DNA of 64,000 nucleotides from a virus: the IMG/VR virus record IMGVR_UViG_3300025133_000028; one strand, 5' to 3'. The notes beneath the pieces are model-generated. The model was given only the letters and a program-made list of their open reading frames with translations. It had not been told where the DNA came from and ran no database searches. The position numbers were made by a program, and so were the translations under genes. Positions within the stretch are counted from its first letter, which is position 1, and each line of letters opens with the position of its first letter. Of the stretch, positions 1,058 to 11,579 are shown piece after piece.

Positions 1058-1132
1058 GCGAGTGTAACTCAGTCTGGCCAGAGTAACTGACTTCCAATCA
1101 GACGGTCGCAGGTTCAAATCCTGTTACTCGCA
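1058..1132 (+). tRNA. tRNA-Gly(UCC)
   Basis: Canonical cloverleaf: GCGAGTG/TACTCGC, D stem ACTC/GAGT, loop CTTCCAA, T arm GCAGG-TTCAAAT-CCTGT; no CCA. Confidence 0.93.
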
Positions 1133-4497: not shown

Positions 4498-4568
4498 GCT
4501 TCTGTGGTGTAATGGTAACATAAAATCTTGGTACGATTTAGATTCGGTTTCGACTACCGACAGAAGAT
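4498..4568 (+). tRNA. tRNA-Thr(GGU)
   Basis: Cloverleaf with G1.A72 mismatch; D stem GTGT/ACAT; AAATC-TTGGTAC-GATTT; TCGGT-TTCGACT-ACCGA; no CCA. Confidence 0.8.
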
Positions 4569-6567: not shown

Positions 6568-7133
6568 CTTTAATTAATAAAATACAAAAAGAAAGACCAG
6601 ATTGGACATCACAGTTCATTCTTCATGCTTTTCACTGTTCTTTACGTAGTCATGATGCTCAAACTCAATGTGGTGCTGTACTGGTTGCTTCAGACAATAC
6701 TATTATTAGCGATGGTTATAACGGTTTTATTCGTGGGATTGACGACAACAAACTACCTAACCTACGACCAACCAAACCAAAAGATTACGGTAACCCAACT
6801 CAAGATAAATACATCTTTATGATTCATAGTGAACACAACGCTATACTTAACGCAGCCAGACAAGGTAAAAGTACTTTAGGAGCAACAGTTTACGTAACGG
6901 GTGAGCCTTGTTGTAATTGTTTGCAGTATATGATACAAGCTGGTATCACAAAAATCGTTTTTACTAATGTTAATAAAGCTAATATGACGGTTGTAAATCC
7001 AGACTACAAAAAGACTTTTGACTTAATAGTAGAACTTACTGGTATAGACATAGAAGAAATAGACATAGATAAAATTAACCCACAGTTCTTGTTAGAAAAA
7101 CTTTCCAAAATTTTTGTTGACAAACCAACGTAA
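6564..7133 (+). CDS. dCMP deaminase
   Basis: RSHD..TQCGAVLV, GYNG, HSEHNAI, PCCNC zinc motifs. Confidence 0.9.
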   Translation: MTLINKIQKERPDWTSQFILHAFHCSLRSHDAQTQCGAVLVASDNTIISDGYNGFIRGIDDNKLPNLRPTKPKDYGNPTQDKYIFMIHSEHNAILNAARQGKSTLGATVYVTGEPCCNCLQYMIQAGITKIVFTNVNKANMTVVNPDYKKTFDLIVELTGIDIEEIDIDKINPQFLLEKLSKIFVDKPT

Positions 7134-7147
7134 GTGGCGTATATATT
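7117..7147 (+). promoter_or_regulatory. promoter (TTGACA-N17-TATATA) overlapping a TGGCGTATA motif
   Basis: TTGACA 7117-7122; TGGCGTATA 7135-7143. Confidence 0.7.
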
Positions 7148-7151
7148 AGTA

Positions 7152-7383
7152 GCCGGGGACAAAAAACCTTTGGGTAAATCCCAAAGGATAAAGGCAACAC
7201 ACCCTCGGATTGCTTAATCGCTCTTAGCAAATTAAATTACTTACTGACTATCTTGTCAGAATACTTGGGTTCGACTCCCACAATTTATAAATAGGCAAAT
7301 AACTATGGTACTTGAAGCTAAGATTTAAACGTGTTGTCTCAAAACCAACAAGACTCGTCTTTTAAAAGAGGCGAGTCTTTTCT
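7152..7383 (+). ncRNA. structured RNA / leader of unknown class upstream of nrdJ
   Basis: Hairpins CCTTTGGG/CCCAAAGG, TTGCT/AGCAA, CTGAC/GTCAG, T-loop TGGG-TTCGACT-CCCA; long-range AGGCAACAC/GTGTTGTCT; bounded by promoter and terminator. Confidence 0.55.
7350..7383 (+). terminator. intrinsic terminator
   Basis: AAGACTCGTCT/AGGCGAGTCTT stem followed by a T run. Confidence 0.75.
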
Positions 7384-7413
7384 TATTAATACCAACATTT
7401 TAGAGGATAATAA

Positions 7414-10400
7414 ATGCACACTTATGAAGAGGCGTATGAGACAAGTAAAGAATATTTTGGTGGTAATGAGTTAGCAGCTAAGGTTTTTGTAGATAAATAT
7501 TCGTTAAAAAATGAGATAGGTGAAATTCTTGAAAAAACACCTACAAGTATGCATAAAAGATTGGCTAAAGAATTTGCTCGAATAGAAAAAAAGAAATTCA
7601 AAACACCATTAACCAAAGAAGAAATATTTGACTTGTTTGATAATTTTAAATATATTGTTCCTCAAGGTAGTCCAATGAGTGGGATTGGCAATAACTATAA
7701 CTATCAATCATTAGGTAATTGTTTTACTTTAGGCAATCATCCTGTAGATTCATATGGCGGTATTTTATATGCTGACCAAATGTTAGTACAGTTAAGTAAA
7801 AGGCGATGCGGTGTTGGTGCTCATATAAACAATATTAGACCAAAAGGTTTGCCAACAAAAAATGCAGCTATTACTACAGATGGTATTTCTGTATTTATGG
7901 AGCGATTCTCTAACAGTATTCGCGAAGTCGCACAATCAGGCAGAAGAGGAGCACTTCTTTTAGGATTGTCTGCATACCATCCAGAGATAGAAACTTTTAT
8001 CAATATCAAAAAAGATAAGACAAAAGTTACAGGTGCTAATCTATCTGTGCTATTACCTAATAATTTTATACAAGCGGTGGAACAAGACGAAGAATACGAA
8101 CAAAAATGGCCAATTGATTCTGAGACTCCGTTAGTTTCTCAAATGGTTAACGCTAAAAAAATATGGAATCAAATCATTAATGCTGCTTGGGAATCTGCCG
8201 AACCAGGACTATTGTTTATTGACAACATACAAAAATATAGCACTTCACACTGTTATGGTAAGGTAGATGAAAGGTTTTTAGACCTAATCCCAAATCCGTG
8301 TTTTCCAGCAAGCGAATATTTACTAACAAATAAAGGATATGTATCTTTTGGACAATTGTTTAAACAAGGTAATAATAATAAGATATTAGCAGACGCTCGT
8401 ATATCTTATAATAATGTTGGAGAAGAACGTGTTGAAAATTGGAAAATAAACTCCCAAAAACACGGAACAATTCAAAGAAATGCTAGTCATGTATTTTTAA
8501 CACAAAAAAAAGCTGACACAATAGAAATAGAAACCAAAAAAGGATTTAAACTGTCGTGTACGCCAGACCATCATATTGCAACAACTACAGGTATGATTGA
8601 AGCAAGTCAATTAATTAAAAATGATGATATACTAATATCGATTCCTAATCAAAATACAAAATCAATTAAAAACAGATTACCAAAAACAGAAAAAGAAATA
8701 TTGTCATTTCTAATAGGTTTGATTTCTGGAGACGGATGTATTGATAATAGTAAAAAAAATATACATCTTGATTTTTGGGAAGATGATAGATATCGTATGA
8801 CAGACATAGTTGTAAAGCTTATTAAAAAACTTCACAATAAATTAGGAGACAGATATGGATTGTCTAACAGAAAATTAAAAATATCTAGAATTTATGATGT
8901 ACAAAAAGAAAGAAAAATAAGAATTTCATCTTCTTGGTTGTTTAATGTACTTTCAGAATATGGTTTTAATAAACAAACAAAACATATGGTTCCTGATTTT
9001 ATATTAAATAATTGTGTAGGTAATATAGGCAAATATTATTTGTCTGGTATGATGTATACAGATGGAACTATTGGAGGAAGTGTAAGTTCTGGATATTCGG
9101 TAAGATTAAATCAAAGTAATAAAAAAATGCTACATAAAATACAAATGATTTTTCATGCTAATGGTATTTTAATGGGTTTATACAAAAGAAGAGACGAACA
9201 AAACCGTATGATGCCGGACGGCAAAGGCGGATATAAATCATATAAAACAAAAACAAATTATGAATTAATTAGTATATGTGGTAGTATAGTTAAATATATG
9301 TCAGAAATAGGGTTTTTTGGAGACAAAAACAAAGAGTCTAAATTTAATAAAAATCATAATTATAGAATCAAATTAAATTACACAGATAAAATTAAAAAAA
9401 TAACATTTAAAAATCAAGAACCAGTATTTTGCATTAAAGAAGATATTGGAAGGAATATTATTGTTAATGGTATTTCTGCAAGAAGATGCGGCGAAGTACC
9501 AATGGGATTTGATGCATGTAGGCTAATGTTATTAAATCTGTTTTCTTATGTAGATAAACCTTTTACTAAATCCGCTAAGTTTGATTACAAAAAATTTGAT
9601 GAACATTGTATTACAGCACAAAGACTAATGGATGACATGGTAGATTTAGAATTAGAAAAAATGGATAAGATAATCAAAAAGATTAAATCTGACCCAGAAC
9701 CTGATAATATTAAACAATTAGAACTTGAAATGTGGGAGTCATATAAAGAAACTGCCGAACTAGGACGTAGAACTGGACTTGGTATTACTGGACTTGGCGA
9801 TTGTTTAGCTGCTTTAGGAATTCAATACGGTTCTAAAAAATCTATTAGAAAAACAGAAGAAATATACAAGAGAATGGCTATATCTTCTATGAAATCGTCA
9901 TGTCTACTAGCTAAAGAACTTGGTGCTTTTCCTTTGTTTAATCCCACCGTTGAACAAGATAACATTTTCATGAATCGTATTTTTGATGCGTCTGAAGAAG
10001 TTAAAATTTTACACCAACAGTATGGCAGACGTAATATTTCCTTGACAACCACCGCTCCTGCCGGTAGTGTTAGTATTATGACCCAAACGACTTCTGGTAT
10101 TGAACCTGCTTTTATGTTAGAATATACCCGAAGAAGAAAAATAAATAACGATTCTGAAAAATGTGATTTCGTGGATGCTTCTGGCGATAAGTGGGAACAT
10201 AACAAAGTAGTCCATCATCACTTGCAGACATGGCGGGATTTAAGTCAAAAAGACAATATTGAGGATTCTCCGTATCATAAGGCTACTTCAAACGACATTG
10301 ACTGGAAAGCTAGTGTAGAATTACAGTCTGTTGCTCAAAAGTGGATTACTCACTCTATTAGTAAAACATGTAATATTCCTAGCGATTCCACAAAAGAACT

Positions 10401-11010
10401 AGTTGCGGAAATTTACTTGGCTGCTGCTAAAAGTGGATGTAAAGGCTTTACTGTATATCGCGATGGTTGTAGAGACGGTGTTTTAGTTGCTGACACAGAA
10501 GTAAAGTTACCACCCAATAGGCCAAAAGAACTAGATTGTGATGTTTACCACACTACAGTTCGCGGACAAGAATATTTTGTGTTAGTTGGATTGTACAAAA
10601 ACAAACCATACGAAGTATTCGCTGGTAAGAATGGTATTATTCACAAAAAAGTTAAGACTGGCAAAATTACTAGGAAACGTAAAGATTTTTACAAAGCGGT
10701 GTTTGATGACGAAAATGAACTATCTCCAATTACGGCATGTATGGAAGAAATGGAAGAATGTATTTCCAGACTTACGTCTAGTCTTTTACGTAGTGGTTCA
10801 GATATGAACTTTATTGTAACACAACTAGAAAAGGTTGGTGAAAGACAAACAGAAATGCATACTTTTGCTAAGTGTCTTGCTCGCGTACTCAAAAAGTATA
10901 TTCCAGACGGGACAGAAACTGGAGATAAATGCCCAGAATGTGGTGATAAACTTATTAGGGAAAGTGGTTGCCAATCGTGTAAATCATGCCCTTATGCTAA
11001 ATGTGGTTAA
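7414..11010 (+). CDS. nrdJ: class II (B12-dependent) ribonucleotide reductase, intein-containing, with C-terminal TSCPD-like and Zn-ribbon region
   Basis: PQGSPM, SLGNCF, QSGRRGA, AEPGLLF, NP|CGE, RRTGLGITG, APAGSVS, TSGIEP, SISKTCN, KGFTVYRDG. Confidence 0.93.
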   Translation: MHTYEEAYETSKEYFGGNELAAKVFVDKYSLKNEIGEILEKTPTSMHKRLAKEFARIEKKKFKTPLTKEEIFDLFDNFKYIVPQGSPMSGIGNNYNYQSLGNCFTLGNHPVDSYGGILYADQMLVQLSKRRCGVGAHINNIRPKGLPTKNAAITTDGISVFMERFSNSIREVAQSGRRGALLLGLSAYHPEIETFINIKKDKTKVTGANLSVLLPNNFIQAVEQDEEYEQKWPIDSETPLVSQMVNAKKIWNQIINAAWESAEPGLLFIDNIQKYSTSHCYGKVDERFLDLIPNPCFPASEYLLTNKGYVSFGQLFKQGNNNKILADARISYNNVGEERVENWKINSQKHGTIQRNASHVFLTQKKADTIEIETKKGFKLSCTPDHHIATTTGMIEASQLIKNDDILISIPNQNTKSIKNRLPKTEKEILSFLIGLISGDGCIDNSKKNIHLDFWEDDRYRMTDIVVKLIKKLHNKLGDRYGLSNRKLKISRIYDVQKERKIRISSSWLFNVLSEYGFNKQTKHMVPDFILNNCVGNIGKYYLSGMMYTDGTIGGSVSSGYSVRLNQSNKKMLHKIQMIFHANGILMGLYKRRDEQNRMMPDGKGGYKSYKTKTNYELISICGSIVKYMSEIGFFGDKNKESKFNKNHNYRIKLNYTDKIKKITFKNQEPVFCIKEDIGRNIIVNGISARRCGEVPMGFDACRLMLLNLFSYVDKPFTKSAKFDYKKFDEHCITAQRLMDDMVDLELEKMDKIIKKIKSDPEPDNIKQLELEMWESYKETAELGRRTGLGITGLGDCLAALGIQYGSKKSIRKTEEIYKRMAISSMKSSCLLAKELGAFPLFNPTVEQDNIFMNRIFDASEEVKILHQQYGRRNISLTTTAPAGSVSIMTQTTSGIEPAFMLEYTRRRKINNDSEKCDFVDASGDKWEHNKVVHHHLQTWRDLSQKDNIEDSPYHKATSNDIDWKASVELQSVAQKWITHSISKTCNIPSDSTKELVAEIYLAAAKSGCKGFTVYRDGCRDGVLVADTEVKLPPNRPKELDCDVYHTTVRGQEYFVLVGLYKNKPYEVFAGKNGIIHKKVKTGKITRKRKDFYKAVFDDENELSPITACMEEMEECISRLTSSLLRSGSDMNFIVTQLEKVGERQTEMHTFAKCLARVLKKYIPDGTETGDKCPECGDKLIRESGCQSCKSCPYAKCG
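8299..9486 (+). mobile_element. intein (396 aa) with LAGLIDADG homing endonuclease, inserted at the RNR catalytic Cys
   Basis: Interrupts NP/CGE; starts CFPASE; block B CTPDH; LIGLISGDG and LSGMMYTDG; ends VNGISARR|C; more AT-rich than flanks. Confidence 0.9.
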
Positions 11011-11021
11011 AGGAAAATATT

Positions 11022-11579
11022 ATGGATATTGCTTGTAGCGAAACTTACAACTTCGATGATGTGTATTTAGCTCCACCAATAGATTTAACTAGACAACATC
11101 ATATACACAGCATAGAAGTTAGTAAGGATTTAGGAAGAGAAGAAATCAACGAACTAGGTAGAAGAGGACCATATTTTAAATATGTAAATTTTCCAATTGG
11201 AATTACAAAGGAGTTAGGACTTGTGGCAATAGTACCAGACGTATCGAAATTTGGCGGATTTGATTTATACCAACATTTAGCTTCTGAAACTGCAATTTAT
11301 CCAGAAGAACAACGCATTACTTACCCCGCTTTGGGATTGTGTGGTGAATCTGGAGAAGTTGCTGAGAAAGTTAAAAAACTATTTCGGGATGATAATGGCG
11401 AATTATCAGAAGAAAGACGAGAAGCACTTAAAAAAGAAATTGGTGATTGTTTCTGGTATTTAGCTGCTCTTGCTAAGGATTTAGACATTAGTTTGGCTGA
11501 TGCTGCTCATGCCAATCTGGTTAAACTATTTGACCGCAGAGACAGAGGAGTACTCAAAGGCGACGGCGATAATCGTTAA
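11022..11579 (+). CDS. MazG-like NTP pyrophosphohydrolase with unrelated N-terminal extension
   Basis: YPALGLCGESGEVAEKVKK...EIGDCFWYLA...GDGDNR; second in-frame RBS+GTG at 11223. Confidence 0.85.
   Translation: MDIACSETYNFDDVYLAPPIDLTRQHHIHSIEVSKDLGREEINELGRRGPYFKYVNFPIGITKELGLVAIVPDVSKFGGFDLYQHLASETAIYPEEQRITYPALGLCGESGEVAEKVKKLFRDDNGELSEERREALKKEIGDCFWYLAALAKDLDISLADAAHANLVKLFDRRDRGVLKGDGDNR

Follow-up and report, generated by a model that had tools for sequence, protein, structure and literature searches.

We analyzed a 64,000-nucleotide window (one strand, 5' to 3') of the virus record IMGVR_UViG_3300025133_000028, and focused on an intein that interrupts the ribonucleotide reductase (RNR) gene nrdJ and that ends in Arg-Arg instead of the usual His-Asn. 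Positions are those of the window, which means the whole 64,000-nucleotide stretch, unless the contig is named, and a slash marks a splice junction. The virus record itself comprises 163,651 bases, with a CheckV completeness of 100%.

The nrdJ intein and its Arg-Arg end

The open reading frame (ORF) at 7414-11010 on the plus strand encodes a precursor of 1198 aa, or about 802 aa once spliced, and was assigned to class II (adenosylcobalamin) RNR with one intein. The precursor matched the NrdJ equivalog model TIGR02504 (NrdJ_Z; 415.8 bits, cut-off 399.95), the RNR barrel domain PF02867 (E 9e-71, residues 103-1015, a match that spans the insert) and, at its C-terminus, the TSCPD domain. The class II RNR residues Cys103 (NCF), Asn294, Cys692, Glu694 and Cys701 were all found. 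No other PF02867 match occurred in the complete phage genome, in which neither NrdD nor NrdB was found either. Translation and alignment with intein-free NPCGE homologues placed the N-extein at 7414-8298 on the plus strand (295 aa, ending in DLIPNP and carrying the NCF redox cysteine, Cys103) and the C-extein at 9487-11010 on the same strand (507 aa plus the stop), the latter sharing at most 63% identity with intein-free NrdJ proteins of ~800 aa. Exactly between Asn-Pro and Cys-Gly-Glu, precursor residues 296-691 form the intein, which starts with CFPASEYLLT and occupies 8299-9486 on the plus strand (396 aa). An earlier note on this DNA had given 8299-9489, and only the start of that range stood, since its end includes the codon of the +1 Cys (9487-9489, plus strand). 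We take NPCGE to be the RNR finger loop whose Cys bears the thiyl radical; the conserved +1 Cys would thus serve both as this residue and as the nucleophile of splicing step 2.

The insert was recognized as a Hint splicing domain into which a LAGLIDADG homing endonuclease is inserted. PF14890 (Pfam Intein_splicing) scored 38-43 bits against a cut-off of 35.8, TIGR01445 (intein N-terminal region) 34-37 bits against 24.5, and PF14528 (LAGLIDADG_3) 46.8 bits in two stretches; none of the intein C-terminal-region models matched the insert in the Pfam and NCBIfam scans. An AlphaFold2 (AF2) model of the intein with short exteins reached a mean predicted local distance difference test (pLDDT) of 95.3 and a predicted template modeling score (pTM) of 0.94, and its best Foldseek matches were the endonuclease-bearing inteins TliVMA, PI-PfuI and PI-SceI (E 8e-18 to 1e-10).

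The features that the earlier note had listed as intact were all recovered, all on the plus strand. Cys1 (8299-8301), the expected step-1 nucleophile, was present in all 204 inteins that we compared (see below), and block B reads T-P-D-H (8560-8571; Thr88 and His91), with His91 in 100 of 100 Arg-ended inteins and Thr88 in 77 of the 78 of the first set. LAGLIDADG motif 1 is FLIGLISGDG (8707-8736; Asp145), where G140, D145 and G146 were conserved, and motif 2 is YLSGMMYTDGT (9037-9069; Asp255), where D255 and G256 were invariant in relatives group A2; both motifs lie in the PF14528 match. Judged by these motifs, this is a two-motif, intein-borne LAGLIDADG endonuclease in which each motif has its acidic residue, and cleavage is predicted. 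Block F, VFCIKEDIGRN, includes the noted Cys (VFCI), namely Cys378 at F:4 (TGC, 9430-9432), a position that is usually Asp.

The intein ends with AAT GGT ATT TCT GCA AGA AGA (9466-9486), followed by TGC GGC GAA (9487-9495). Its last ten residues are therefore IIVNGISARR, with CGE next, and direct reading together with alignment to canonical relatives bore out the NGISARR/CGE junction. The register is fixed because intein-free homologues read NPCGE (uninterrupted in 68 of the 118 nearest C-extein relatives), and because canonical relatives align residue for residue, with VYDLTEPxTHSFVANGLxxHN/C in place of VFCIKEDIGRNIIVNGISARR/C. Compared with these relatives, Cys378 replaces the Asp at F:4, Arg385 (AGG, 9451-9453, plus strand) the His of block F, and Arg395 and Arg396 (AGA AGA, 9481-9486, plus strand) the penultimate His and terminal Asn. 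Two other boundaries were considered and rejected, as the same alignment fixes the register: with IIVN/G, Gly would stand at +1 and the finger loop would retain six additional residues, and an intein from F2 to C corresponds to no known chemistry.

The Arg-Arg end in place of His-Asn is real and reproducible. The identical 1198-aa protein was present on seven contigs from four sources (JGI/IMG, Logan, ENA and MetaClust), which agrees with the previous judgment that a read error is unlikely, and AGA is indeed two bases away from an Asn codon. Recoding of AGA was ruled out, since the conserved RNR motif SGRRGA in the same gene is written GGC AGA AGA GGA, so that AGA is Arg in nrdJ. Removal at the RNA level was also ruled out, because the frame is open throughout and the Rfam scan of 6900-11200 contained no group I or group II intron. 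Another LAGLIDADG intein of this phage interrupts the large terminase subunit (encoded by an ORF of 1048 aa or more; 148986-152159 on the minus strand of the contig, outside the window). This intein starts at EYGA/CQTSDTLI and ends at LLNATVHN/SFSND, that is, with a canonical His-Asn/Ser junction, and thus provides an internal control.

With regard to the established classes, the insert agrees with class 1 in Cys1, in the Thr-x-x-His of block B and in the +1 Cys, and departs from it in having Arg396 where a C-terminal Asn (or Gln, Asp or Glu) able to cyclize is expected. The penultimate His of class 1, which is common and non-obligatory, is replaced by Arg395, and many Gln- or Asn-ended relatives also do without it (GQ, GN and SN ends). 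From class 3 the insert differs by possessing Cys1, by Ile93 at B:12 and by Ala at G:5 (Thr in 35 of 78 relatives), and only its F:4 Cys agrees with that class. The insert is an intein in every respect save the residue that defines step 3.

Arg-ended inteins at the NP/CGE site

Relatives were collected by a word-indexed search with the intein region, which gave 96 proteins, and by a HMMER scan of 1.84 billion cluster representatives, from whose 1014 matches (E <= 0.001) the best 150 were taken. From the proteins of both searches, 204 complete inteins at the RNR N-P/C site were cut out. The conserved xRR/C end that the earlier note had proposed to look for proved to be widespread: the terminal residue was Arg in 100 of these inteins, Asn in 66, Gln in 37 and Ser in one, and the residue before the terminal Arg was Arg in 94, Ala in two, and Lys, Val, Ser and Gln in one each. 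Identity between the Arg-ended inteins ranged from 22% to 99%, with a median of 38%. Nine positions were invariant among all 100 of them (C1, G13, D32, R34, H91, T95, G140, C378 and R396), and the terminal Arg is, on this comparison, under the same constraint as the known catalytic residues. Terminal Lys was absent from the lineage (0/100), although AGA and AAA differ by one transition and Lys was tolerated at position 385 (n = 4).

At the DNA level, 37 related loci wrote the terminal Arg as AGA (31), CGA (4) or AGG (2), and used five codons at the penultimate residue; these loci were found with a 5-row alignment, and the most divergent members and the nested Asn/Gln-ended ones lay outside the set. 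Several codons being in use for the terminal Arg, selection therefore acts on the amino acid. A tblastn search of 50,697 deposited phage genomes, both cultured and uncultured, found no close relative, only SPbeta-type NrdE inteins with at most 28% identity, and this absence may be a reason why the lineage has gone unnoticed.

Covariation analysis revealed that the terminal Arg does not vary alone. The combination of F:4, position 385 and the terminal residue was Cys, Arg or Lys, and Arg, respectively, in 100 of 100 Arg-ended inteins, with Arg at 385 in 96 and Lys in four. Of the 104 Asn-, Gln- and Ser-ended inteins, a single one had Arg at position 385, the other 103 having His, Asn or some other residue there. 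This coupled His-to-Arg change in block F goes beyond the earlier note. In trees built after the four trait columns had been dropped, all Arg-ended inteins fell in one clade of 106 rows, which also held six Asn/Gln-ended rows in four places: P0104, with a TN end; P0077, P0078 and P0105, with KN and RN ends; P0103, with an RQ end; and P0113, also with an RQ end. All four nested lineages have His or Asn at position 385, giving four independent pairs in which the change went in the same direction (4/4). Moreover, when all columns were scanned, only position 385 within the splicing domain tracked the terminal residue in three or more of the four nested lineages. The Cys at F:4 behaved differently from this pair: it was present in 106 of 106 clade rows without a single change, whereas the rows outside comprised 61 Asp and 36 Cys, with six changes.

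The two Arg-Gln-ended nested lineages are one base from Arg-Arg (CGA to CAA), a relation between Arg and Gln codons that was likewise not part of the earlier note. In three of the four lineages, the nested inteins were nearer to Arg-ended than to canonical inteins in both the body and the last 30 residues, the tail of P0104 being ambiguous (0.58 versus 0.56). An import of canonical C-terminal tails by recombination was rejected for the same reason, and point substitution is simpler than an imported tail because the nested inteins resemble Arg-ended ones in body and tail. Thus, as judged from covariation among natural sequences, terminal Arg396 and Arg/Lys385 are a co-adapted pair that replaces Asn/Gln and His/Asn on an obligate Cys378 background.

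The lineage is old, diverse and still mobile. The window intein is ~55% identical to relatives whose C-exteins share only ~42%, and other pairs show the reverse; the closest C-extein relatives (59-63% identity) are mostly intein-free proteins of ~800 aa, that is, empty sites. The NP/CGE site is also an intein hot spot: several lineages use it, and many of these do not end in Asn. At least one other intein family, of the HNH type and unrelated to the Arg-ended lineage, occurs at NP/CGE (P0267, P0274, P0305, P0312, P0327, P0329 and P0349, with PF13392 in 5/7) and ends in Gln (NNLQ/C or TPQ/C), and mini-inteins with Asn or Gln ends, unrelated to the lineage, occupy the same RNR site. RNR precursors of 1,500-1,900 aa with two or three inteins were common among the relatives (P0005, P0008, P0023, P0029, P0068, P0078 and others), and their extra domains included Hom_end (PF05204), HNH (PF13392) and Hint (PF01079/PF13403).

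Around the window nrdJ itself, several further features were observed. The TSCPD domain is followed by the Cys-rich C-terminal tail of the RNR, CPECGDKLIRESGCQSCKSCPYAKCG (window 10930-11010), and the alignment consensus of relatives repeats the pattern of this tail, CPxCG...CxxCxxCG. A gap of 280 bases (window 7134-7413) separates the upstream ORF from nrdJ; within it, at about 7268-7283, lies GGTTCGACTCCCAC, a string that resembles the T-arm of a tRNA. ARAGORN called no tRNA or tmRNA in this gap, and Rfam gave no cobalamin riboswitch there, the only match being the sub-threshold sRNA RF02617 (24 bits, E 0.2). Three phage tRNA genes, Gly-TCC, Thr-TGT and Thr-GGT, lie upstream of the RNR region (window 1058-1132, 2228-2296 and 4498-4568, respectively).

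Probable splicing and the proposed step-3 reaction

Several indirect lines of evidence suggest that inteins of this lineage very likely splice. First, the hosts of the 100 Arg-ended inteins keep the +1 Cys in 100/100 cases, the Glu at +3 in 99/100 and a nearby second Cys in 90/100. Second, the dN/dS ratio (nonsynonymous to synonymous substitution rate, omega) of the exteins, which the earlier note had also proposed to examine, was 0.08-0.5 for C-exteins in pairwise Nei-Gojobori comparisons, and 0.2-0.45 for the inteins themselves, all of these values being rough since dS was near saturation. Third, P0177 contains a natural mini-intein of 162 residues (residues 286-447) in which the endonuclease has been precisely deleted while the splicing blocks are intact and the end reads TRR/CGE; three more members of the lineage with decayed endonucleases also keep the RR end. 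Such elements are unable to home and yet persist in an open RNR gene with conserved splicing blocks, which is the textbook mark of selection for splicing.

The earlier note had left three options, namely non-canonical chemistry, resolution with the help of a protease, and a dead RNR behind an intact ORF, and our results strongly favor the first of them. A dead enzyme is unlikely because this is the only RNR in the complete genome, because Cys and Glu are kept as described above and because extein dN/dS is well below 1. Assistance by a protease would be unparsimonious. The lineage thus probably completes splicing by chemistry that has not yet been described.

We propose, at a probability of roughly 0.35-0.4 and thus tentatively, that the terminal Arg396 is itself the step-3 nucleophile and cyclizes through its N-epsilon, with the block F Arg as activating partner. 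Steps 1 and 2 would be ordinary: Cys1 would form the thioester, aided by Thr88 and His91 of block B, and the +1 Cys would then accept the N-extein. Step 3 cannot be Asn cyclization, because the terminal residue is Arg. Instead, N-epsilon of Arg396 would attack the residue's own backbone carbonyl and free the intein with a six-membered delta-lactam at its end, comparable to the glutarimide that Gln-ended inteins form. The positive charges of Arg385, Arg395 and often Lys380, together with the conserved acid Glu381, could help to deprotonate the guanidinium, and the freed amine of Cys would finish the S-to-N shift to give active NrdJ. Several considerations favor Arg cyclization. Counted in bonds from C-alpha, N-epsilon of Arg stands where N-epsilon-2 stands in Gln; Gln is the commonest non-Asn end among relatives at the same site; a single base separates CGA from CAA, and the clade includes nested Arg-Gln-ended forms; Lys, whose ring would have to be seven-membered, is never terminal; and the additional positive charges and the conserved Glu381 are as expected where a guanidinium has to lose its proton. 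In peptide synthesis, carboxyl-activated Arg is well known to close to a delta-lactam as a side reaction, and Arg acts as a nucleophile in enzymatic ADP-ribosylation, Arg-GlcNAcylation and McsB phosphorylation.

Several points weigh against this proposal or the observations on which it draws. The guanidinium has a pKa of about 13.8 and is a very poor nucleophile unless strongly perturbed, and the invariance of Cys378 fits an attack by the F:4 Cys equally well. In the approximately unbiased (AU) test, monophyly of the Arg-ended rows was rejected with a 73-row set (delta log-likelihood 162, p 0.0005), a result that hinges on wider sampling and on a group that was defined after the trees had been seen; with the first set (95 rows, one nested lineage only) monophyly was not rejected (p 0.63). 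A sign test on the four events gave p 0.125, significance being unattainable at n = 4. As for splicing itself, the near-saturated dS blurs the argument from omega, and phages can use the RNR of their host, which weakens the only-RNR argument relative to a cell.

Other explanations start from the same observations. The intein may splice while some other group cuts the Arg396-Cys bond, with Arg396, Arg385 and Arg395 forming only an electrostatic or oxyanion-stabilizing cluster that lowers the pKa of a thiol; we regard this as the main rival, somewhat less probable than Arg cyclization. The cutting group could be the thiolate of Cys378, attacking the scissile carbonyl in the manner of a cysteine protease, much as the F:4 Cys of class 3 inteins attacks the N-terminal bond, or else the +1 Cys could undergo an N-to-S acyl shift, with hydrolysis or transfer to Cys1 to follow. 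The lack of any change at Cys378 within the clade, compared with six outside, speaks for such a cut, as do the established attack of the F:4 Cys on a peptide bond in class 3 inteins and, in the Pho RadA intein, the contact of F:4 with the last residue (PMC4031507), while Arg instead of His at 385 and a penultimate residue that is basic in most cases would suit a charge cluster. However, the F:4 Cys is not specific to Arg-ended inteins, as it is also present in 36 Asn/Gln-ended relatives outside the clade and in all six that are nested within it, and a purely electrostatic role should admit an occasional terminal Lys, as happens at 385, whereas the terminal residue was Arg in every case. One-base exchange with Gln-ended forms is also more natural if Arg occupies the cyclizing position, as our proposal of Arg cyclization supposes.

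It is also conceivable that the branched intermediate is self-made and that a trans-acting, Arg-specific protease of host or phage then cuts after Arg, since the basic junction, RR/C in 94/100 cases, resembles a dibasic or trypsin-like site. We consider this improbable: one common partner is not to be expected for ~100 different phage RNRs from many environments, the penultimate residue may be Ala, Val, Ser or Gln, and the change of the buried position 385 of block F in step with the terminus suggests an intramolecular active site rather than a recognition site. About equally improbable is that no splicing takes place at all, the RNR being dead or the intein a selfish passenger of a phage that relies on the RNR of its host. 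The absence of a residue thought essential for step 3, the failure of every C-terminal splicing model to match and the ability of phages to replicate without an RNR of their own would agree with this explanation, but ORFs are intact in ~100 lineages with their catalytic residues conserved, and omega of the exteins stays under 0.5. A terminal Arg would not have stayed invariant in a dead intein, the mini-inteins and the inteins with decayed endonucleases retain their splicing blocks, and the return of nested relatives to canonical ends implies that the lineage stayed functional.

Relation to known inteins and significance

Among known systems, Gln-ended class 1 inteins (in the RNR of Chilo iridescent virus and in Pol II of Pyrococcus abyssi and P. 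horikoshii) are similar to the window intein in Cys1, the TxxH of block B, the +1 Cys, the lack of a penultimate His and a non-Asn end with a side-chain nitrogen at the epsilon position, and Gln-ended inteins occupy the same RNR site in 37 of the 204 cases. They differ in having a carboxamide where a guanidinium is found here, and His or Asn in block F where Arg or Lys is found here. The canonical His-Asn LAGLIDADG inteins (PI-PfuI, 1DQ3; TliVMA, 7QSU; PI-SceI, 1VDE) share the fold and domain order, and those at the RNR NP/CGE site are homologous to the Arg-ended ones, a distant relative, P0097, ending in VVHN/CGE. In contrast to these, the window intein has Cys instead of Asp at F:4, and Arg for the block F His, the penultimate His and the terminal Asn. 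The only solved structure found by sequence was the NrdJ-1 split intein (8UBS), which is also of a phage-type NrdJ; it is small, split and distantly related, and the similarity was confined to the block B region (E 0.004). Class 3 inteins (the mycobacteriophage Bethlehem DnaB type, with the WCT motif) have an obligatory F:4 Cys and a phage-associated origin as well (PMC4031507), whereas they lack an N-terminal nucleophile and end in Asn; the window intein has Cys1, no Trp at B:12 and an Arg end.

A mechanistic review of 2014 gave Asn, Gln, Asp and Glu as the known C-termini of inteins, reported splicing by cyclization of Gln for Gln-ended inteins, one of them in an RNR, and described F:4 as adjoining the terminal residue in the structure of the Pho RadA intein (PMC4031507). 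Full-text literature searches, with subscription journals outside their coverage, found no description of an Arg-ended intein. What the present analysis adds is the covariation of positions 385 and 396, the nested Asn/Gln lineages, the argument from the epsilon nitrogens of Gln and Arg, the natural mini-intein and the internal control in the terminase.

To our knowledge, all described mechanisms of protein splicing (classes 1-3) resolve the branched intermediate by cyclization of a terminal Asn, or rarely of Gln, Asp or Glu. An invariant Arg in an enzyme that is unable to work unspliced implies a fourth way to break the bond between intein and extein. The lineage makes this question directly testable, as it offers both a natural mini-intein of 162 residues and natural "revertant" pairs that name the two residues to swap. 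A new cleavage chemistry, if true, could give engineers inteins with a different junction, pH or redox dependence, and it would widen the rules of intein annotation, under which Arg-ended inteins are now likely called inactive. Arg cyclization in particular, if true, would add a mechanistic class to those known for protein splicing, and would show Arg in a role that it rarely has, that of a nucleophile on a peptide bond.

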